21,069 nt of DNA from a virus (Duplodnaviria; Heunggongvirae; Uroviricota; Caudoviricetes), in IMG/VR virus record IMGVR_UViG_2630968342_000014, one strand, 5' to 3'. Below, piece after piece: positions 6,196 through 19,757 of the stretch; position 1 is the first letter of the stretch; the number at the start of each line of letters is the position of its first letter. A program made the translations under genes and the position numbers. The notes under the pieces are model-generated. The model was not told the origin of the DNA, searched no databases, and saw only the letters and a program-made list of their open reading frames with translations.

Positions 6196-6260
6196 AATAA
6201 GTCCTCACTATATTAAGATATTCAGTGATGAGATAAATAATCAGTTAATTAAGAACGATA

Positions 6261-6623
6261 TTAATGACCTGCTGCGCGGAGTTTTCCGTCAGGTTCACCG
6301 GCAAGAGTCAGTAATTGTCCCTGGTCTTCCTGCAGAATAGTCAGGCGACCACCGCGATTGACATACATCGGCGTTTCGGTGGTGTCTTCTTCGGAAATTT
6401 TCCCGCGGTTAGTCGGACGAACATATGAGAGTTTGTGTTTTATTTTCACACGGTTCTCATCAAACGGTTCGATTTCCAGGTTGAGCGAGACCTTCCCTTT
6501 GGTTTTCGTGTTCATCACACCTGAAGCGACTTCACTGAGAACAGCGCCGATTTTGGTTTCAAATACGCCGCCGTCCAGCTCCCCGATAAATGCCTGCACA
6601 TCAGTACTGCGTTCGCTAGCCAT
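6261..6623 (-). CDS. YfdP-like small protein (120 aa), first gene of the early-left operon
   Basis: The track ORF 6261-6809 begins at a TTG with an implausible Cys/Arg-rich extension. The in-frame ATG giving MASERSTDVQAFIGELDGG... is preceded by GAGGAG Shine-Dalgarno. Start coordinate derived from ORF-track frame arithmetic (codon 63 of the track ORF). Confidence 0.6.
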   Translation of the reverse strand: MASERSTDVQAFIGELDGGVFETKIGAVLSEVASGVMNTKTKGKVSLNLEIEPFDENRVKIKHKLSYVRPTNRGKISEEDTTETPMYVNRGGRLTILQEDQGQLLTLAGEPDGKLRAAGH

Positions 6624-6760
6624 TTTGCTGCTCCTCATCATATCGACCCTGCAAGGTCGGTTGGTTTCTCCACAAAACAGAGAAGAACACCTGCGGTGGC
6701 AGCCGCCCGGATGGATTGGGTTATGAGCCCGTCGTCCGGTGATGCTCTTCTCTGTTTTGT

Positions 6761-6806
6761 AAAAAGAGCGGTACCAGCCGGAAGCAAGTGTACAAACTGG
6801 TACCGC
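6761..6806 (-). terminator. Candidate intrinsic terminator in the leader of the early-left operon (tL-like)
   Basis: Minus-strand RNA: GCGGUACCAG, 19-nt loop, CUGGUACCGC, then UCUUUUUAC. Perfect 10-bp GC-rich stem (plus 6768-6777 and 6797-6806) followed by a U-tract. The plus orientation has no U-tract. Confidence 0.45.
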
Positions 6807-7094
6807 CAAAGCAGTGGCTGTTGTGGTGACCGGTGCTGATCTCCGGCTTGCGGTTATTTCAGACTCTCACGGGCGTTTAATTGCCCCGCCGAACAGCTCT
6901 TTTCCGCAATAGCTGCAATGTCTTTCGCGCATCAGCCTGCGCATTCACCACAACTCTAAGGATTCTCTCTGGTTGAAAATACTTAGCTGTTATGTGCCTG
7001 CTTTTAGCCACATCAGGCGAGGTGGACCTGGTTATTCCCCAACAACAAGGATTCGGTTAATCTGGTTATCCCCAACAACGCAAAAGGAAAAGAA

Positions 7095-7529
7095 ATGTCC
7101 GGTAATATCTACACGTTGTACAAATCCCACTGTGAAAATGTTGGAAAGTATCGGGGCATTGAAATCAGTGGGATAGTGTCATCAGTCGAAATAAGCAAAG
7201 TGGAATCAAGGGCAACATTACTTACTCTTCTGGATCTTGTCTTACATGAGCACCGGAAGAAATTCGGCACTCCCTATAATCAGTTGAATGGGAAAAAGGC
7301 TCTGGTTCACCTTATTCTGATGAAGCATCACTGGATGCCAAAACAGATTAATGAGATGAAATTTGATGAACTTCTTCTTTCAATTCAGGATGAACTCACA
7401 CTTGATAAAATAAGCGTAACCGCCCAGAAATTTTTAGATTATCGAGACTGGAGATCACAAATTCATCACTTTGATGATTTTGACGAAAATGAATGGGATC
7501 CTAATTTGTCTGCACAATATCTAAAGTAA
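7095..7529 (+). CDS. Hypothetical accessory protein (144 aa), no recognisable domain
   Basis: ATG at 7095 with AAAAGGAAAAG Shine-Dalgarno. Visibly more AT-rich than flanking phage genes. Opposite orientation to the surrounding early-left genes; two 18-19-bp direct repeats lie just upstream and a plus-strand intrinsic terminator lies downstream. Confidence 0.55.
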   Translation: MSGNIYTLYKSHCENVGKYRGIEISGIVSSVEISKVESRATLLTLLDLVLHEHRKKFGTPYNQLNGKKALVHLILMKHHWMPKQINEMKFDELLLSIQDELTLDKISVTAQKFLDYRDWRSQIHHFDDFDENEWDPNLSAQYLK

Positions 7530-7765
7530 CATCCTGTGATAAAACCGTGATTTCCTGATCCAGTTTTTTTAAGGAGTCTATTGTTTCCTGTCGATAAGAC
7601 AGCACTTCACGAAGCTGGTTTATAGCTGCCAGCTTCTTTGTCATCCACTCATAAATTTACTCATCTGTGTAGCTAGGCGCGACGATTTTGGGTTCTGTTT
7701 TGTGCATTTCACACCTCCTCAAGTTATCAGTTACTTGTTGATGGGGACCAGATTGTTAAAGAGCT

Positions 7766-7789
7766 AAGCGTCCTGTAGGGCGCTTTTTT
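7766..7789 (+). terminator. Intrinsic terminator downstream of the 144-aa gene
   Basis: AAGCGTCC-TGTA-GGGCGCTT followed by TTTTTTG: 8-bp stem including one G-U pair, tetraloop, T-run. Oriented for plus-strand transcripts only. Confidence 0.5.
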
Positions 7790-7874
7790 GTTGCTAACGA
7801 ATCATCCTGGACTTCATATGCCCCAGGCGGCTACTTCGTGGGTGTCCTGCCTGTTCGTTGTCTTAACACCTTTA

Positions 7875-7915
7875 AGTTGTAATTTAGTTGTGGTTTTGAA
7901 TGTTGTCAACAACTT
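7875..7915 (-). promoter_or_regulatory. PL-like leftward promoter overlapped by OL-like operator motifs
   Basis: On the minus strand: TTGACA (complement of 7904-7909), 17-bp spacer, TAAATT (complement of 7881-7886). Flanked and overlapped by the operator motifs found between cI and cro (ACAACTTTATG at 7909-7919 and 9562-9572; AGTTGTGG at 7886-7893 and 9595-9602). Confidence 0.5.
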
Positions 7916-7972
7916 TATGTGGTTTGAACGAGTAGCCAAGGAGTGCAAGGATTATCAAAAAAAGGAGGTTGT

Positions 7973-8863
7973 ATGGAAGACGCGCTTTACGCTTTTAATT
8001 ACACACAGAACCGGGACAAGTTATTTGCTAACTTGATTAGCATCATTGATGGAATCATTGCAGATGGAGTTGTCCGTGAAGAGGAGGTTCTTTACTTAGA
8101 TACATGGTTACTTGAAGCAAAGCAGATTATCAATAATGGAGTTATAAAAAGTCTATCTGCTCGGGTGTCGGATATTCTTGCGGATGGAATAATCACATCA
8201 GAAGAACGTGATGACCTTAAAAATAGCCTTCTCCAAATACAGAGGGAAATTCTTGATATCCCTGAAATTGATTTTTACTCCAAGGATGTAGATGTCCATT
8301 TACTTAATGGACTATGTAAAGGATTAATTGCTGATCGGAACTTAACTCAAGAAGAAATAAGATATCTTAATTGGTGGCTTGAGCAAAATGGAGCTTTGAA
8401 GAACAACTACCCAGGAAAAAAACTTTATGCACTTGTAAAGGAAATTCTTAAAGATGGTGTTATTACTGAAGATGAGAGTTTAACTCTACATAAGGCATTA
8501 GTAGACTTCACAGGATGTGACTTGGAAAGTGGGGTGGTGGATGGTTTGGCGACCAGGCTGCCTATTGATGTAGGGGCTTCGATAGAGTTAGAGGGTAAAA
8601 CCTATTGTCTTACAGGCACTTTTGTTGCAGGAAAGAGAGCCGTAGTTGAAAATTTGATTAAAAATGCTGGTGGGAACATCAGTAGTGGAATTACTCAAAA
8701 GTTGGATTTTTTAGTAATTGGGACGCTTTCCTCCCGTGATTGGAAATTCTCTAGTCACGGAAGGAAGATCGAAAAGGCTATATCTTATAGGGATGATAAT
8801 GGTGCAAAACTTAAAATTATTTCTGAAGAAATGCTTTTCGATGCATTACCAAGTTCGCGATGA
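7973..8863 (+). CDS. BRCT-domain protein with four N-terminal ~40-aa helical repeats (accessory gene)
   Basis: The track ORF starts at GTG 7943, but the ATG at 7973 has an AAAGGAGG Shine-Dalgarno. C-terminus (GKTYCLTGTFVAGKRAVVENLIKNAGGNISSGITQKLDFLVIGT...KLKIISEEMLFDAL) has the pattern of a BRCT domain like the C-terminus of NAD-dependent DNA ligase. N-terminal half carries four repeats of the form L-x-x-ILADG-x-IT-x-EE-x-x-L. AT-rich. The 3' end overlaps the cI 3' end. Confidence 0.7.
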   Translation: MEDALYAFNYTQNRDKLFANLISIIDGIIADGVVREEEVLYLDTWLLEAKQIINNGVIKSLSARVSDILADGIITSEERDDLKNSLLQIQREILDIPEIDFYSKDVDVHLLNGLCKGLIADRNLTQEEIRYLNWWLEQNGALKNNYPGKKLYALVKEILKDGVITEDESLTLHKALVDFTGCDLESGVVDGLATRLPIDVGASIELEGKTYCLTGTFVAGKRAVVENLIKNAGGNISSGITQKLDFLVIGTLSSRDWKFSSHGRKIEKAISYRDDNGAKLKIISEEMLFDALPSSR

Positions 8864-9532
8864 CCAGAATACCCTACCTATAACATGAATTCTGGCTCGT
8901 CTATCTTCAAAGGTGAGTATTTCATCTGGGTACTCATCTTTGTTGAAGCTTCTAAGAATCAAGCCACCGTCAGGTAAGTTGATAAGTATTTTAACCCTTA
9001 GCAATACACCATCTCGTACGGCATAAAGATCGCCATCACGAATAGGAACGGTTTGAGAAATATCAACGGCAACAAGATCTCCATTATTGAGAACCGGTAA
9101 TAAACTGTTCCCCCATATTTGTACGATCTTGGCATTAGATGCACATACGCCAGATTTTCTCAAATCTGCTCTTCTTAACGGAAACCAGTCAATAGCTGAT
9201 TCAACTATTTCAGCCAGACATCCGTTACCTGCCGATAACTCGACATCTAAAACAGGAATGTTTACGAAAATATCGGGGTCTAATGCGGTGCTTTCTGCTT
9301 CTTTTACAACAAGATCAGGTATGGATGCGTTGTCTTCAATACCAAGTTGTAACCACTTTTGTGATACACCTAAAACTTTTGCAATTTCTTTAATTTTGCG
9401 CGGTTGTAGAGTTTCGCCATTCTCTATTTTGGCTACAGATTGTTGTGAAAGTCCAATTTTTTCAGCTAGTTGAGCTTGGCTCATGCCAGCTTTCTCTCTA
9501 CCTATCTTTAATCGTTCTGCCAGTGTTTTCAC
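8846..9532 (-). CDS. cI: cI-like prophage repressor (HTH_XRE N-terminus, S24 LexA-like autopeptidase C-terminus)
   Basis: N-terminal XRE-type HTH (LAERLKIGREKAGMSQAQLAEKIGLSQQSVAKIENGE). Probable Ala-Gly cleavage site (ELSAGNG). Catalytic Ser (WGNSLLP) and Lys (LLRVKIL) in the C-terminal domain. GTG start at 9532 with AGAGGGA Shine-Dalgarno. Divergent from a Cro-like gene. Confidence 0.9.
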   Translation of the reverse strand: MKTLAERLKIGREKAGMSQAQLAEKIGLSQQSVAKIENGETLQPRKIKEIAKVLGVSQKWLQLGIEDNASIPDLVVKEAESTALDPDIFVNIPVLDVELSAGNGCLAEIVESAIDWFPLRRADLRKSGVCASNAKIVQIWGNSLLPVLNNGDLVAVDISQTVPIRDGDLYAVRDGVLLRVKILINLPDGGLILRSFNKDEYPDEILTFEDRRARIHVIGRVFWSSRTW

Positions 9533-9559
9533 AACATATCCCTCTCTTTTTTGATGAGG

Positions 9560-9645
9560 TTACAACTTTATGTTTTAGCTTTCCAACATCTAAAAGTTGT
9601 GGTAAAAGTTGTTAATGTTGTATTCTTGCAGCTCGTAACAACTTA
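9560..9645. promoter_or_regulatory. OR-like operator/promoter region between cI and cro (divergent promoters)
   Basis: 136-bp intergenic region with at least four copies of the half-site ACAACTT/AAGTTGT in both orientations (9562, 9594, 9606, 9638). The same motifs recur near 7870-7920. Confidence 0.6.
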
Positions 9646-9667
9646 ACTACCAAAAAAGGAGAAAGCT

Positions 9668-9916
9668 ATGACACCTGAGCAATTAGCCTTATCGGAGGCA
9701 ATCGCTCTGGCTGGTGGTCAATCAGAATTGGCTCGGAAGCTCACAGCCAGCAGCGGTCATTTAGTAAAGCAACAACATGTCTGGAACTGGTTGAACAGAG
9801 AAAAGCGTCCCCCTGCAAAGCTTTCGATATTCATTGAAAAGACCACTGGCATATCAAAAGAAAAATTACGTCCAGATATTTTTCAAAAGATTAAAGATTC
9901 ATCAGATGAAAAGTAA
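9668..9916 (+). CDS. cro: Cro-like / YdaS-like small HTH regulator
   Basis: 82-aa ORF divergent from cI. ATG at 9668 with AAAAAGGAGAAAG Shine-Dalgarno. HTH-like segment (GGQSELARKLTASSGHLVKQ). First gene of the rightward operon. Confidence 0.65.
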   Translation: MTPEQLALSEAIALAGGQSELARKLTASSGHLVKQQHVWNWLNREKRPPAKLSIFIEKTTGISKEKLRPDIFQKIKDSSDEK

Positions 9917-10496
9917 CCACAGTTTTAAGGAGATAGCCGTGGGTAAGCATCACTGGAAAATAGAAAAACAGCCTGAGTGGTACGTGAAAGCTGTCAGAAA
10001 AACTATCGCGGCGTTGCCGGGGGGTTACGCTGAAGCCGCTGACTGGCTGGATGTAACAGAGAACGCTTTATTCAATCGCCTTCGTGCCGATGGCGATCAG
10101 ATTTTCCCGCTGGGATGGGCAATGATTTTACAACGTGCTGGTGGAACTCACTTCATTGCTGACGCTGTGGCGCAGTCTGCAAATGGCGTCTTTGTGTCTC
10201 TTCCTGACGTCGAGGATGTGGACAACGCCGATATTAACCAGCGTCTGCTGGAAGTCATTGAACAGATCGGCAGTTATTCCAGACAGATTCGTTCAGCAAT
10301 CGAAGACGGTGTAGTGGAACCGCATGAGAAGACAGCAATTAACGACGAGCTGTACCTCTCAATTTCGAAGCTCCAGGAGCATGCAGCACTGGTCTACAAA
10401 ATCTTCTGCGCTCCAGAAAATAGTAACGCCCGCGAGTGTGCAGCTCCGGGCGTCGTGGCGTCGATTGCTTCTGGTTGTGGAGAAACTAACGCATGA
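9906..10496 (+). CDS. CII-like regulatory protein (YdaT / phage CP76-type, by position and size)
   Basis: The track ORF starts at TTG 9834; the in-frame ATG at 9906 (MKSNHSFKEIAVGK...) overlaps the cro-like stop. About 196 aa. Immediately downstream of cro as in YdaS/YdaT-type immunity modules. Family assignment from memory. Confidence 0.5.
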   Translation: MKSNHSFKEIAVGKHHWKIEKQPEWYVKAVRKTIAALPGGYAEAADWLDVTENALFNRLRADGDQIFPLGWAMILQRAGGTHFIADAVAQSANGVFVSLPDVEDVDNADINQRLLEVIEQIGSYSRQIRSAIEDGVVEPHEKTAINDELYLSISKLQEHAALVYKIFCAPENSNARECAAPGVVASIASGCGETNA

Positions 10497-10641
10497 ATAG
10501 TTTAACGGCAAATAACCGTTTGTCGCAACAGCTGGTGGTCAGCGTCGCTGAACACCTGTTGTTACGGCATGAATGCAGATTACCAAATCACCTGGCTGTA
10601 AGTAACCACAGAGAACTTTACCTGACTGTGGGGGGCGAGTT

Positions 10642-10821
10642 GTGCAGGAACTTAACCGCTGGTTTCGTGACGGAAGAGGACTTTATGTTCATGTTATTCG
10701 TTGGGAGCCAGAAACACAGCGCGTTATCTATCTTCGCAAAGACTACCCGCATGAGTGCTTTAGTCCTTTGTGGAAATTCAGGCGTGATTTTGTTGAGTGT
10801 GAAGGACCACCAGCATATTGA
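10642..10821 (+). CDS. Possible small ORF (59 aa, GTG start), not in the ORF track
   Basis: Hand translation: VQELNRWFRDGRGLYVHVIRWEPETQRVIYLRKDYPHECFSPLWKFRRDFVECEGPPAY, read from GTG at 10642 with a G-rich Shine-Dalgarno (GGGGGG at 10630-10635). Lies in a 600-bp gap that the track covers only with an implausible N-terminal extension of the rha ORF. Confidence 0.3.
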   Translation: MQELNRWFRDGRGLYVHVIRWEPETQRVIYLRKDYPHECFSPLWKFRRDFVECEGPPAY

Positions 10822-10907
10822 TTCTGCCATTTCGGGACGTTACACTGTCTCTGCACCTTATAAAGCGGGTGCCGGGATTGGCGTCCTGAAATTGATTACT
10901 GAGCATA

Positions 10908-10928
10908 ACCGCGCTCATGCGGTTTTTT
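10908..10928 (+). terminator. Candidate intrinsic terminator (tR1-like position)
   Basis: ACCGC-GCTCAT-GCGGT followed by TTTTTT: 5-bp GC-rich stem, 6-nt loop, U-tract. The reverse strand lacks a U-tract after the stem. Confidence 0.4.
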
Positions 10929-11098
10929 CGTGTCATGAGCATTGCTACGCCCAAATTATGGTGGGGCGTACAGGGCCGACTTCGGTCGGGCCGGGTTCGG
11001 TAGTCTCCGGTAACGCCAACCCTGTACGTCTCACCACCTCTGTGATTGGCGTCCCATGTGGTGAGTTTTCTAAAAAACTGACTACCGGGGCTGTCACT

Positions 11099-11656
11099 AT
11101 GACTACTCTCCCAACCCTCTCTCAACCTGAAATTGCCATCGTTGATGGTCAGGCTGTTACATCTTCTTTGGCTGTTGCTGACTTCTTCTCTAAACGTCAT
11201 GACGATGTTCTGAAAAAGATCCGCATTTTGGATTGTTCTCCAGAGTTTTGTGCCCGCAATTTTGCGGAGACATCAATTTTGGTACGCCAGCCCAACGGCG
11301 GTACTCGCAAACTACCTTGCTATCAAATAACCCGCGATGGCTTCGCGTTCCTTGCTATGGGCTTCACGGGTAAACGTGCTGCCCAGTTCAAAGAGGCATA
11401 CATCAATGCCTTTAACCAGATGGAGAAACAGCTTTCAAATCCCTCTGTACTGAGCGACGTTGCACATAACGCCAGCGTTCTCTATTCCTACATTTCATCA
11501 ATTCATCAGGTCTGGCTGCAGCAGCTTTATCCCATGTTGGCAAAAGCCGAATCCCCGCTGGCTGTAAGTCTGTATGACAGCATCAACGACGCGGCGCTAC
11601 TGGCCAGTCTCATAAATTTGTCGCTGAACCCTTCAGAGGTAAGGGGGCGCAAATGA
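11099..11656 (+). CDS. rha: Rha-family phage regulatory protein
   Basis: The N-terminus from the ATG at 11099 (MTTLPTLSQPEIAIVDGQAVTSSLAVADFFSKRHDDVLKKIRIL...ITRDGFAFLAMGFTGKRAAQFKEAYINAFNQME) matches the Phage_pRha domain pattern. The track ORF 10493-11656 fuses it to an upstream extension that looks non-coding. Confidence 0.8.
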   Translation: MTTLPTLSQPEIAIVDGQAVTSSLAVADFFSKRHDDVLKKIRILDCSPEFCARNFAETSILVRQPNGGTRKLPCYQITRDGFAFLAMGFTGKRAAQFKEAYINAFNQMEKQLSNPSVLSDVAHNASVLYSYISSIHQVWLQQLYPMLAKAESPLAVSLYDSINDAALLASLINLSLNPSEVRGRK

Positions 11657-17028: not shown

Positions 17029-17385
17029 ATGCGTGATATGTATGAAGTAATGGATCGTTGGGGAGCTTGGGCTGCTTCAGACAATAGCGGAGTGGACTGG
17101 CAGCCGATAGCGGCTGGTTTCAAGGGACTTTTACCTCATGGCAAAAAGTCACGGATTCAGTGTGATGATGACGAAGGCATCATGATAGACAGTTGTGTGG
17201 CTCGGTTGAGAAGGTATAAACCAGAGGAATATGAGCTCATCATCGCCCACTTTGTTATCGGTATCTCATTACGTACTATTGCGAAGAAGAGAAAATGCTC
17301 TGATGGCACAATTAGGAAGGAACTGCAAACTGCAATGGGGTTTGTTGACGGCTGTTTAGCAATGTTAGCTTATAGTATGGCATAA
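17029..17385 (+). CDS. Q: Late-gene antiterminator Q (small Q family)
   Basis: The ATG at 17029 has a GGAGAAAG Shine-Dalgarno (the track starts at TTG 17014). Motifs MDRWGAWAA, IAAGFKG, QCDDDEG and KCSDGTIRKELQ match the small Q-antiterminator family of phage 21/Rac-type prophages as I recall them. Confidence 0.8.
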   Translation: MRDMYEVMDRWGAWAASDNSGVDWQPIAAGFKGLLPHGKKSRIQCDDDEGIMIDSCVARLRRYKPEEYELIIAHFVIGISLRTIAKKRKCSDGTIRKELQTAMGFVDGCLAMLAYSMA

Positions 17386-18579
17386 AAAATAAAATAGATT
17401 TACTGCCGATTTTTCAAAAAAGACTGGGAACTGTTTATATCCAACGTAAATAAGGCCTCCATAAAACATGGCTGATGCGAGATATTTAACAGTTCTCATC
17501 CTTTTTTTAGCTTTATCAATCAAACCTGTAATGCTACTCTTAATACTATCTGCATTATCTTTGATTTCTTTATTTTCTTCAAACTTTAAATACTTATCGA
17601 AAGCGGACTCCACTCGAGAACGTAAGTTGTCGAATGTTTCATTGAATATCTCAATAGAAATGTAATTGACTTTTTTTATCATCCAAAGTCCTGCGATAAT
17701 CAATATTGCTTCGGTTGTTTCATTAGCCTTCACTAAGCCACCAGCAGCTATTAATGCACCGGGAATAGTCAATGCTTTTGTCTGATTAGATGATATGAAT
17801 TCGTTAATTTTACTCGTGAACTCAAGATTTTTCTCATCGAGTTCGTTAAGAATTTTATTTACAGAAAACCTCTTTGTGTAAATCTCATATAGTTCATCAT
17901 ATTTTTTCCTGACGAGTTCAGTAGAGTTAAGCAAGTCAAAGAAATTGAACGTACCATTTGCTTTAAATACTTCGTTTATGGCTGAGCGTATAACGAGCTT
18001 GCGCTCGCTTTTGTGTAAATCATTGATTTTTATTGTGTCGAGAAGCTCCTTTATAATTTCATATTTAAGAGACGAGTTCGATAAGCGATTAATCTCGCTA
18101 TATTGTAAAAAATGCGTGAGTTCGACTGTATAACTTTTGTCTTCATTGGTGAAAAATAAGACAGAGCAGTCACTGTTATGATGATCAGCAATTAATGAAA
18201 GGATATCTTTCCACATAAAGAAAATATGGATTTTTTCGATGCTTTCATTCTTAGAAGTAGGGAGTATTAACGGCGTTCCGATGATATAATTTTTCGGAAG
18301 AGCGTTTTGGGTGTTTACTCTAGACCAAAAAGACTCAACATTCTCATAAATTATAGCGTCATCCCAAGATGAAGCTTGGCGATCTAGCCAAATTTCATTA
18401 TTTTCGATGCAGGTTGTTGCCTTTTTATAACCTATAGATTGTAACAGTCTAATTATTTCAGAACTATTTACAATAACAATGCTTTCTTCAAGACTTATGA
18501 CAGTGTAGTAGCCCTCAACTCTGCTTGAGGCTCCGTTAATAATCTGCGCTAATCTTGATAAGTCATCAGCAATTGTCAT
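17365..18579 (-). CDS. Membrane protein (404 aa): about 265-aa soluble N-terminal domain plus C-terminal transmembrane segments; second gene of the AT-rich cassette
   Basis: The ATG at 18579 lies 2 nt after the upstream stop (coupled). Hydrophobic stretches ALTIPGALIAAGGLV, AILIIAGLWMI and YLASAMFYGGLIYVGY near the C-terminus. AT-rich. The 3' end overlaps the 3' end of Q by 21 bp (convergent). Confidence 0.65.
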   Translation of the reverse strand: MTIADDLSRLAQIINGASSRVEGYYTVISLEESIVIVNSSEIIRLLQSIGYKKATTCIENNEIWLDRQASSWDDAIIYENVESFWSRVNTQNALPKNYIIGTPLILPTSKNESIEKIHIFFMWKDILSLIADHHNSDCSVLFFTNEDKSYTVELTHFLQYSEINRLSNSSLKYEIIKELLDTIKINDLHKSERKLVIRSAINEVFKANGTFNFFDLLNSTELVRKKYDELYEIYTKRFSVNKILNELDEKNLEFTSKINEFISSNQTKALTIPGALIAAGGLVKANETTEAILIIAGLWMIKKVNYISIEIFNETFDNLRSRVESAFDKYLKFEENKEIKDNADSIKSSITGLIDKAKKRMRTVKYLASAMFYGGLIYVGYKQFPVFFEKSAVNLFYFLCHTIS

Positions 18580-18581
18580 TA

Positions 18582-19757
18582 TTAGCTGTCTCTATATCTT
18601 TTGAGTTCATCATAATTTGCCTGACTCAATTTTATCACAATTTCGCATTTGTTGTCAGTGAGAATTACAGGCTTATTTGACTTTTCGTCTCCAATAGCTC
18701 CACGCATTATTTTCAACTTAAAATTATTGTCGTTATCTGCCACTTCAATTGTAAGCGCGCTTTCAGCTGCTTTAGGAGTTGGTTCAAATTGAGGGTCAAT
18801 CTGGAAACCATTAAGATTAACAAAATCGACAAACGTTCCCTTACATTTGTGTGAATCAGTCAGGCATGAGTCAATTATTTTTGAAATATCCTCTATCTTA
18901 ACGGACTTATTTCCGTGTTTATCTTTTGATTTTTTTTCCAGTAAGGATTTAACTTCATTGTCAATAGTATCACGCAGTACACGACCGAGTGAGTTTTTAC
19001 TAGCAAAAATATCTATAGCACTGAATAATTGCTGAATGCTTCTTTTATTGTCCGAATCATGTCGGCAACCTAATGAGTCTTTGAAAAAATCGCTTTTAGA
19101 TTTACCTTGCAAGAAATGTACATATGAGTCACCCTTGTTTTCTGGATAACTGGCTTCGAATAAAGTTAAATCGAACATCGCAGCCTGCCGTAAGGCATCG
19201 GTATTAATTGGATTTAATCTTGTTGGGGTCAACTTATCCGAATCAAAGTCATAGGCGCTTTGTTTATCAACCATTACGATTAGAAGTTTCCCCAAATCCT
19301 CTGGTTCGGTAGACTTATAGTGGATGAAAACAACGCTCCCCCCCTGAAGTTGGGCAACTCTCGATTCGTTATTAGCATTATGTTTAAGCTTCTCTATTAT
19401 AGCTCTAGATAAATCAATGAATTCATTATTTTTATTAATGTATTTTTTTAGGATCGTAGGAATGGATGAAGGGTTGTGATCTGAGTCTAGGAAGTTATGA
19501 AATTTGTTTTTTCGGCTAAATTTTTTCTCAATTCTGGTTATGAATTCAGATGTGACTTCATTTTTTAGATCCCAAACTTCACCTAATCGATAATCAAATG
19601 CTCTTGAATCATTTTTTTCAAGATTTGCTGTTACAGCACCAATAGGAAAGTACGATTGTTTGCCCAGCACTACAACATGAGGCGTGGCACCGCATTTATC
19701 GCAAGCTACAGTTGGGTCGTCAAGAACATTGCCACATTCTAAACAAGTTATATCCAT
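18582..19757 (-). CDS. Zinc-ribbon plus NdpA/YejK-like (nucleoid-associated protein family) domain protein; first gene of the AT-rich cassette
   Basis: ATG at 19757. N-terminal C-x2-C-x12-C-x2-C zinc ribbon (CLECGNVLDDPTVACDKCG). Central region GGSVVFIHY...LLIVMVD...YVHFLQGKSKSDFFKDSLG parallels the E. coli YejK/NdpA blocks GGFVLFCHY...YLTFLKG...DFFMDFLG, recalled from memory. Strongly AT-rich with A/T-ending codons. Confidence 0.65.
   Translation of the reverse strand: MDITCLECGNVLDDPTVACDKCGATPHVVVLGKQSYFPIGAVTANLEKNDSRAFDYRLGEVWDLKNEVTSEFITRIEKKFSRKNKFHNFLDSDHNPSSIPTILKKYINKNNEFIDLSRAIIEKLKHNANNESRVAQLQGGSVVFIHYKSTEPEDLGKLLIVMVDKQSAYDFDSDKLTPTRLNPINTDALRQAAMFDLTLFEASYPENKGDSYVHFLQGKSKSDFFKDSLGCRHDSDNKRSIQQLFSAIDIFASKNSLGRVLRDTIDNEVKSLLEKKSKDKHGNKSVKIEDISKIIDSCLTDSHKCKGTFVDFVNLNGFQIDPQFEPTPKAAESALTIEVADNDNNFKLKIMRGAIGDEKSNKPVILTDNKCEIVIKLSQANYDELKRYRDS

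Follow-up and report, generated by a model that had tools for sequence, protein, structure and literature searches.

An ECs1072-family prophage gene as the probable cargo of a P22 sieB/sas-type cassette

The subject of this study is an open reading frame (ORF) at positions 7095–7529 on the plus strand of a 21,069-nucleotide (nt) stretch of DNA from a virus of the class Caudoviricetes (IMG/VR record IMGVR_UViG_2630968342_000014; the whole stretch is referred to as the window hereafter). The best explanation of the results is that this ORF encodes a soluble helical ECs1072-family protein and is the cargo of a regulatory cassette of the P22 sieB type. The protein would be expressed in the lysogen, silenced by antisense transcription, and most likely function as a factor for phage exclusion or abortive infection. 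We give this reading as a whole a probability of about 0.5. As for its two parts, the regulatory architecture, judged from sequence homology, is quite probably of the P22 sieB type, and an anti-phage function of the protein, argued by analogy, is a tentative assignment somewhat short of an even chance. The gene and the cassette that carries it are as follows.

7095–7529, plus strand: ECs1072-family gene; ATG start, 144 codons, 144 amino acids (aa); product modelled as soluble and all-alpha
7084–7089, plus strand: Shine–Dalgarno (SD) sequence AAGGAA, 5 nt upstream of the ATG, read from the sequence
6942–7865, no strand assigned: mobile cassette of about 925 bp, containing the sas-like module, the ECs1072-family gene, a convergent 68-codon gene, a plus-strand terminator and a conserved segment of the pL leader

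The ORF is a real, conserved accessory gene of prophages. A preliminary description, made from the sequence alone, had given its coordinates and length of 144 aa, its AT-richness and its own SD sequence, and all of these were borne out; the GC content is 0.37–0.41 over 7001–7600 vs 0.51–0.52 immediately leftward. Purifying selection on the ORF is strong: the 23 nucleotide alleles found in 80 viral contigs differ by 21 synonymous and 1 non-synonymous distinct codon changes. The same description called the gene an orphan, which is incorrect. The protein scores 157.8 bits (cut-off, 70) against NCBIfam NF033230, the "ECs1072 family phage-associated protein", with residues 4–144 placed on profile positions 2–142; it matches phrog_5286 at 4.3e-90 over residues 1–144; and the PGAP annotation of the source genome already names it as ECs1072 family. 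The accompanying claim that no domain is recognisable holds for Pfam, which gave no match to the protein, and fails for the NCBIfam and phrog families just mentioned. An exhaustive HMMER search found 76 clusters of stand-alone homologues of about 145–155 aa, with identities down to about 20–35%. Two residues of the family, H72 and W134, are invariant, and R54, L64, G66, A69 and W80 are nearly so. The AlphaFold2 model, built on a 48-sequence alignment, is all-helical (pLDDT, 93; pTM, 0.89) and corresponds to a soluble helical bundle; no membrane segments are predicted in the protein.

The protein is thus a member of a catalogued family, to which no database match gives a biochemical function. 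NF033230 is classed as a "hypothetical equivalog", and both it and phrog_5286 are without an assigned function. No family among the defence models of PADLOC-DB 2.0 matched at E-values up to 1, the PDB sequence search returned myoglobin alone (E = 0.26), Foldseek against the viral models of BFVD gave nothing below E = 1, and nothing links the protein to DNA-binding or repressor-like folds. A locus search with alignment A2 returned only viral loci of 99–100% identity. The remote-homology and structure check suggested in the preliminary description has produced a family and a confident helical fold, and no Pfam, PADLOC, PDB or fold match that names a biochemical function. Two candidate assignments were tried and rejected. 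One is a phosphohydrolase of the HD, HD-GYP or HDOD type, whose H...HD...D metal-ligand motif is not present in the family. Another is a homologue of SieB itself: the SieB domain PF14163 gave no match, and hhalign gave a probability of 0.2 against P22 SieB. A literature search under the family and accession identifiers found no paper, save a microarray table naming ECs1072. This namesake gene gives a microarray signal in the uninduced lysogen of O157 Sakai, and the signal drops more than 4-fold on entry into the stationary phase (PMC2241611).

The position of the gene provides the first clue to its regulation. The window is 100% identical to a part of the genome of E. coli strain 2018-166 (NZ_CP075632), in which the lambdoid prophage adjoins mlrA/yehV. 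Phages Kati, SfIV and vB_EcoM-689R6, among others, carry the 925-bp block at 6942–7865 with 98–99% identity and with differing flanks, and at least 80% of it was found in 407 of the 5,426 complete E. coli genomes. In SfV and e14, the two flanks of the cassette match and another cargo lies in between. The ORF has the early-left genes on one side and the first pL gene and repressor on the other, and lies antisense to pL; this is the slot of sieB in P22, where the order is ral (minus), core, P_sieB with two ACCCCTACAG repeats, sieB/esc (plus), gene 24 (minus), nutL and pL, and c2 (minus). In e14, ymfI occupies the equivalent slot. Every gene to the left of the ORF (yfdP/yfdQ/yfdR-like genes through xis and int) is on the minus strand, so that the reported opposite orientation to all neighbours stands on this side; on the right side it does not, the next gene (7943–8863, with a BRCT domain) being also on the plus strand. 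The same arrangement was seen in seven homologue contexts (Escherichia, E. albertii, Providencia, Pectobacterium and other assemblies), in all of which the family gene is on the strand opposite to the early-left genes; in six of the seven, it is also convergent with a gene for a cI-like HTH/S24 repressor, followed by cro and cII. The elements on the right side of the ORF are listed below.

7881–7909, minus strand: probable pL, TTGACA-17-TAAATT; predicted, and the best promoter-like site in 6200–9800 (10/12 matches)
7501–7707, minus strand: convergent 68-codon gene (phrog_1744, 7e-18); SD GAGGAGG, ATG at 7707; 29-nt overlap with the 3′ end of the ORF
7766–7789, plus strand: intrinsic terminator; hairpin AAGCGTCC-TGTA-GGGCGCTT followed by a T-run; scored by the scan on the plus strand only

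At the position of the candidate pL, e14 and SfIV carry TTGACA...CATAAT flanked by repeated GGTACAT operators. The site at 7881–7909 is a probable pL, judged from its sequence, and would be the source of the leftward transcript antisense to the ORF. In the preliminary description, the ORF was regarded as a moron placed antisense in the early-left path, in a position whose morons commonly encode superinfection exclusion, immunity or virulence-associated functions; the positional and regulatory homology to P22 sieB/sas lends support to this proposal by analogy. As a separate observation, the pL leader at 7790–7865, which reads ACGAACAGGCAGGAC.CCCACGAAGTAGCC... on the minus strand, is kept in e14, SfV, SfIV, Kati and E. 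albertii regardless of the cargo. As no obvious N gene is present at this place in these phages, the leader could be a nut- or put-like site.

The second clue is the region upstream of the ORF, whose homology to the P_sieB/sas module of P22 is well supported by the alignments described below. This region contains the following elements.

6979–7099, minus strand: sas-like antisense RNA region, located by nhmmer and by alignment to P22 sas; its plus strand is the promoter and leader of the ORF
6995–7025, no strand assigned: conserved core TGCCTG-N7-CCAC-N-TCAGGCG-NN-GTGG, with the interleaved pairs GCCUG/CAGGC and CCAC/GUGG; 3′ domain of the sas-like RNA
7027–7050, minus strand: hairpin with a GGGG loop (7037–7040); columns 56–65 of alignment A6 pair with columns 70–79
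7033–7063, plus strand: predicted ORF promoter, the equivalent of the "P sieB" of P22; −10 TAATCT at 7058–7063, start near 7070
7065–7079, minus strand: repeat copy 2, GGTTAT(T)CCCCAACAAC, read from the sequence; its plus strand is the predicted 5′ end of the mRNA

About 100 nt upstream of the ORF are conserved between distant loci far better than the proteins. Based on the distance from the core to the start codon, the modules can be grouped into two types, with 37–41 nt in type A and 66–72 nt in type B; the window, with 69 nt, belongs to the latter. An nhmmer profile of the type B modules, from which the window and its close relatives had been excluded, matched the minus strand of the window from 7095 to 6986 (envelope 7099–6979; 110 nt; E = 4.2e-21), a score that is partly circular in its core part, because the seed loci were gathered with a pattern derived from the window. 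P22 sas was found independently of the core pattern, and so were the lambda-like, Hafnia, Klebsiella and e14 copies. In a 2026 small-RNA study, P22 sas is a 127-nt minus-strand read-out (PMC13397905). When reverse-complemented, the published sas is identical to the P22 DNA reaching from just past the core to the start codon of sieB; the conserved "leader" thus doubles as the sas gene on one strand and as P_sieB promoter plus leader on the other. The window aligns with the published sas over its full length (alignment A6). The annotated P_sieB of P22 (AF527608, 29690–29720) maps to columns 43–73 of this alignment, and the invariant columns A43, T47 and A48 correspond to a plus-strand TAnnnT, which is present in 28 of 28 sequences at the annotated −10 of P_sieB. 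In the window this box is TAATCT, and it predicts a transcript starting near 7070 with a leader of about 25 nt. The GGTTAT(T)CCCCAACAAC repeat is present in copies near 7030–7047 and 7064–7079, and two equivalent copies (ACCCCTACAG in P22) are found at the same places in all type B modules. A purine-rich SD equivalent precedes the start codon at a fixed distance in every module. Rfam has no family for the upstream module.

Several other identities of this region were considered and rejected. A riboswitch-like mRNA 5′ leader with an H-type pseudoknot was dropped, as the P22 promoter is annotated downstream of the core and sas covers the core on the other strand. A CsrA-binding leader, suggested by GGA motifs and by the csrA neighbours in Providencia, was discarded since GGA is not conserved across the modules. 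A GcvB target or sponge motif (CACAACA-like; compare AgvB, PMC4104026) matches imperfectly, and AgvB is located at another site. A LexA box and a sigma-54 promoter have the wrong spacing.

The cassette of the window is therefore the known P22 sieB/sas kind of regulatory cassette carrying a new cargo, and a comparison with P22 clarifies the likeness and its limits. The prophage expresses SieB, which causes the lytic cycle of P22-like phages to abort, P22 itself being spared (PMC10461980). According to later accounts of this escape (Ranade and Poteete 1993, via PMC7067206 and PMC12197685), sas pairs with the sieB mRNA, and translation is switched to the inhibitor Esc. The window resembles P22 in position and orientation, with a gene antisense to pL and a convergent gene downstream, and in the homologous upstream module with its core, two repeats, TAnnnT at the −10 of P_sieB and SD at a fixed distance. 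In P22, a cis-antisense RNA covers the ribosome-binding site, and one is predicted to do so in the window. The differences are that the repeat motif is CCCCAACAAC in the window vs ACCCCTACAG in P22, that the convergent neighbour encodes a 68-aa acidic protein in the window vs an N-like antiterminator in P22, and that the window adds a plus-strand terminator of its own. The sieB-esc-sas superinfection-exclusion cassette is also present in lambda and Rac. The pairs lambda oop-cII and P22 sar-ant, listed in PMC12197685, likewise use a short structured antisense RNA or a convergent transcript to make two functions mutually exclusive; they are at other loci, involve other RNAs and have no sequence relationship to the window.

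The e14 element of E. coli K-12 provides a further comparison. Its left flank is 92% identical to the window over 6940–7025, and the core is common to both. It also has the module, a plus-strand cargo (ymfI), a convergent overlapping minus-strand gene (ymfJ), pL and a cI-like repressor (cohE/ymfK). Unlike the window, e14 has a short type A module with one hairpin and no plus-strand terminator, and YmfI (GhoS-like, phrog_8894) and YmfJ are unrelated to the products of the window genes; a homology of the 68-aa protein to YmfJ was rejected after comparison. A relative in the YmfI/GhoS-like cargo family has a Pfam GhoS match at 1.5e-7. Late in the SOS response, ymfJ of e14 rises about 28-fold like other repressor-controlled genes, and ymfI barely changes (PMC11002266). 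A published list of convergent excludons includes both ymfI-ymfJ and the sieB-ydaF pair of Rac (PMC12288877). Two side observations concern the e14-like modules: in the ymfI module (locus L171, 3055–3716), the TAnnnT box is TATGCT and directly follows the core, and the type A modules have one covarying hairpin before the SD, GCUGG/CCAGC in e14 and UCUUGG/CCAAGA elsewhere.

From these likenesses, the following mechanism can be proposed. In the lysogen, pL would be repressed, and the ORF would be transcribed rightward from a weak sigma-70 promoter of the P_sieB type, whose predicted −10 is TAATCT at 7058–7063. The mRNA would have a short CA-rich leader with the SD AAGGAA and would end at the plus-strand-only terminator at 7766–7789. 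When pL fires, upon induction or on an incoming phage with the same cassette, leftward transcription would pass the directional terminator and the 68-codon gene and then run antisense through the ORF. This transcript would give rise to a structured sas-like RNA (about 6979–7099, minus strand) complementary to the SD and the start codon of the ORF. Convergent transcription and the antisense RNA would together shut the ORF off, and the antisense RNA may give the carrier phage its self-immunity. A gene under such control would be expected to encode a product useful in the lysogen and harmful to lytic growth, as SieB is; this product would therefore most likely serve phage exclusion or abortive infection.

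The directional terminator had been claimed in the preliminary description as the gene's own, and the site at 7766–7789 is indeed terminator-like on the plus strand only. Of 79 viral contigs, 77 retain it, and altered versions are present in the E. albertii copy and in a diverged copy (locus L010). Read on the minus strand, the hairpin contains a C-A mismatch and is not followed by a U-tract, so that leftward transcription should pass it. A second, weaker hairpin of 9 bp (GAAGCTGG...CCAGCTTC) with a weak T-run was noticed at 7611–7636 on the plus strand, 82 nt past the stop codon of the ORF and antisense to part of the 68-codon gene; the diverged L010 copy retains a similar AGCTGG...CCAGCT hairpin. 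It may represent an earlier 3′ end of the ORF mRNA or a structure of the pL transcript.

The module is not confined to these phages. An exact-pattern scan with TGCCTG-N7-11-CCAC-N-TCAGGCG-N2-3-GTGG, using one genome per species, gave at least 80 loci against about 3 expected by chance according to our own estimate; 7 of them, in other phyla, were discounted as chance matches, leaving 73 that come almost exclusively from Enterobacterales. The genera among the matches listed are Xenorhabdus, Photorhabdus, Proteus, Providencia, Morganella, Serratia, Symbiopectobacterium, Arsenophonus, Escherichia and Shigella. In at least 74 non-redundant loci, the core is followed on the same strand, at the fixed distance, by a start codon that has an SD. 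The 68 downstream ORFs fall into at least 29 unrelated clusters, of which the ECs1072 family is the largest with 12 members. When the 80 listed loci of the scan are taken together with the window and four loci already in hand, an ECs1072 homologue follows the core in 16 of the 85 occurrences. Importantly, true SieB homologues (Pfam PF14163; phrog_1301, "superinfection exclusion") are among the cargo clusters, including a Yersinia cargo that is 53% identical to P22 SieB, and the module was also found upstream of sieB in the lambda-like 2G7a, the Hafnia phage Pocitis76 and the Klebsiella phage Kp4866-6. The other cargos include the GhoS-like family with YmfI of K-12 (phrog_8894), DUF1883, zinc-ribbon proteins (phrog_1244), phrog_3983 and small helical proteins. 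In 29 of the 46 loci with enough sequence, a cI-like repressor is encoded on the other strand no more than 4.5 kb downstream. Separately, a phage-encoded CsrA homologue was seen directly upstream of the module and divergent from it in Providencia-type prophages (L005, 2–169; L006, 5702–5890; also L112 and L113).

Several points weigh against an exclusion factor under P22-like control. The protein is unrelated to SieB, and its model is soluble and all-alpha, without the transmembrane segments of SieB. The ORF also lacks an Esc-like internal start: no in-frame ATG occurs before codon 76, and no GTG or TTG has an SD. Ten other cargo families gave no convincing PADLOC match, and the equation of cargo with defence rests on a single precedent, because the SieB cargo alone has a known function. 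On the side of regulation, the consensus promoter scan found no plus-strand promoter, the predicted one having been missed because of its poor −35, and it found no separate promoter for the antisense RNA either, so that this RNA would have to derive from pL read-through and processing. Finally, the core could act as DNA and not as RNA, because it is invariant and shows no covariation.

Among the alternatives, the one that survives best keeps the regulation and changes the job. The protein would be a lysogen-expressed accessory factor acting on the host or on the prophage switch, for example in repressor cleavage, the SOS response, RNA metabolism or fitness, and the cassette would simply be a permissive site for expression where useful small genes of any kind accumulate. 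We consider this possible, if rather doubtful. It agrees with the heterogeneity of the cargo, mostly of no known function and with no convincing PADLOC match among the ten families compared, with the CsrA homologues adjoining the module in Providencia-type prophages, and with the response of the ECs1072 mRNA to the growth phase (PMC2241611). However, exclusion is the role of the sole cargo that has been characterised, a product that harms lytic growth is the easiest explanation for a conserved antisense off-switch, and the protein has no tie to DNA binding or to a repressor-like fold.

A second alternative concerns the module itself, which might function mainly as DNA, that is, as a promoter and an operator for a regulator of phage or host origin, with the ORF turned off by transcriptional interference from pL alone and no functional antisense RNA. 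The invariant TAnnnT does mark a promoter, and in the short modules of type A the −35 and the spacer would come from the core itself. The pairs of the two core helices never vary and hence carry no covariation information, which fits this explanation, as does the lack of a sas promoter. However, the loop that separates TGCCTG from CCAC has a variable length of 7–11 nt, which is difficult to fit to a fixed binding site of a dimer. Next to the core, 9 of the 10 pairs of the GGGG-loop hairpin covary, 81% of the cells being paired vs about 40% when the partners are slid, and many of the pairs are G-U pairs possible only in the minus orientation. The minus strand also folds more stably than the plus strand (−28.7 vs −23.8 kcal/mol), and does so in 28 of 35 sequences, which are interrelated and make these statistics rough. 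Moreover, an abundant discrete RNA of exactly this region was detected in P22 (PMC13397905). A module acting mainly as DNA is accordingly improbable, and we retain the sas-like antisense RNA as part of the preferred explanation.

A third alternative is that the ORF works together with the convergent 68-codon gene, which comes first after pL, as a pair of toxin and antidote, or effector and inhibitor. Both are carried jointly in the 925-bp cassette, and small minus-strand genes, whose proteins are 24–69% identical to one another, overlap the 3′ ends of the family genes in several loci of other genera. The pairing is not obligate, and for this reason the toxin–antidote explanation was rejected: both genes occur in 11 of 21 ECs1072 loci, the other 10 lack the small gene, and 4 small genes accompany other cargo, giving 14 loci in which the two are found apart. 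In the window, the 68-codon gene has a nonsense change, GAA to TAA, at codon 17 (7657–7659), and the ORF is intact. Kati and SfIV have an intact copy of this gene, the TAA allele occurs in only 3 of the 79 viral contigs, and PGAP leaves the gene unannotated in the source genome. In addition, convergent genes cannot share a transcript, and unrelated genes hold this position in P22 (gene 24) and e14 (ymfJ). Membership in the type II toxin–antitoxin systems was likewise rejected in view of the convergent orientation, the lack of obligate co-occurrence and the pseudogene state of the partner in the window. Such a pair is very improbable. The last alternative, a chance or decaying reading frame beside an RNA module that alone is the true feature, has the lack of a known domain as its sole point and is refuted by the family conservation, the confident fold and the ratio of synonymous to non-synonymous changes.

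Other features were observed elsewhere in the window. The 306-aa protein encoded at 7943–8863 (plus strand) has a C-terminal BRCT domain (Pfam, 1.4e-6), belongs to phrog_3989 and weakly matches the PADLOC candidate system PDC-S48 (2.7e-7). The 3′ end of its gene overlaps that of the cI-like repressor gene (8846–9532, minus strand) by 18 nt. The gene is a second moron on the plus strand in the interval from pL to cI, and SfIV, Kati and e14 lack it. Two Rfam matches above the gathering score, isrK (10853–10929, plus strand; 59 bits) and C4 antisense RNA (10954–11041, plus strand; 82 bits), are adjacent and lie within the Rha-family regulatory protein gene annotated by PGAP at 10493–11656. Judged from sequence, this pair looks like an immunity module of the P1/P7 type (c4/ant-like) inside a lambdoid early-right operon. 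Just after the Q antiterminator gene, the AT-rich block at 17365–19757 (minus strand; GC content, 0.33–0.36) contains two minus-strand ORFs of 404 and 391 aa; the PGAP annotation of this stretch gives a hypothetical protein and a nucleoid-associated protein that is shorter. The block resembles another insertion of a moron or of the defence type.

Placing the ECs1072-family gene in the sieB slot gives it a concrete mechanism, in which expression in the lysogen would be combined with antisense shut-off during lytic growth. It also gives a candidate function, the exclusion of other phages, to a family carried by about 7% of complete E. coli genomes and by Shigella serotype-converting phages. The breadth of the sas-type module, with many genera of Enterobacterales, two architectures and at least 29 cargo families, appears to be undescribed as far as Rfam and the searchable literature go. 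It suggests that P22 sas, for 30 years an antisense switch of a single phage, belongs to a broadly conserved RNA family that has no Rfam entry and that marks a site of cargo exchange at which new anti-phage genes could be sought. More speculatively, and with odds we regard as low, the P_sieB/sas module may be a widespread plug-in platform of lambdoid prophages in Enterobacterales, providing a promoter active in the lysogen, a leader and an antisense switch for self-immunity, and thereby an unrecognised hotspot of lysogen-expressed anti-phage genes, with ECs1072 as a new family of single-protein abortive infection. If so, YmfI and the other GhoS-like, DUF1883 and zinc-ribbon cargos would be further anti-phage candidates.

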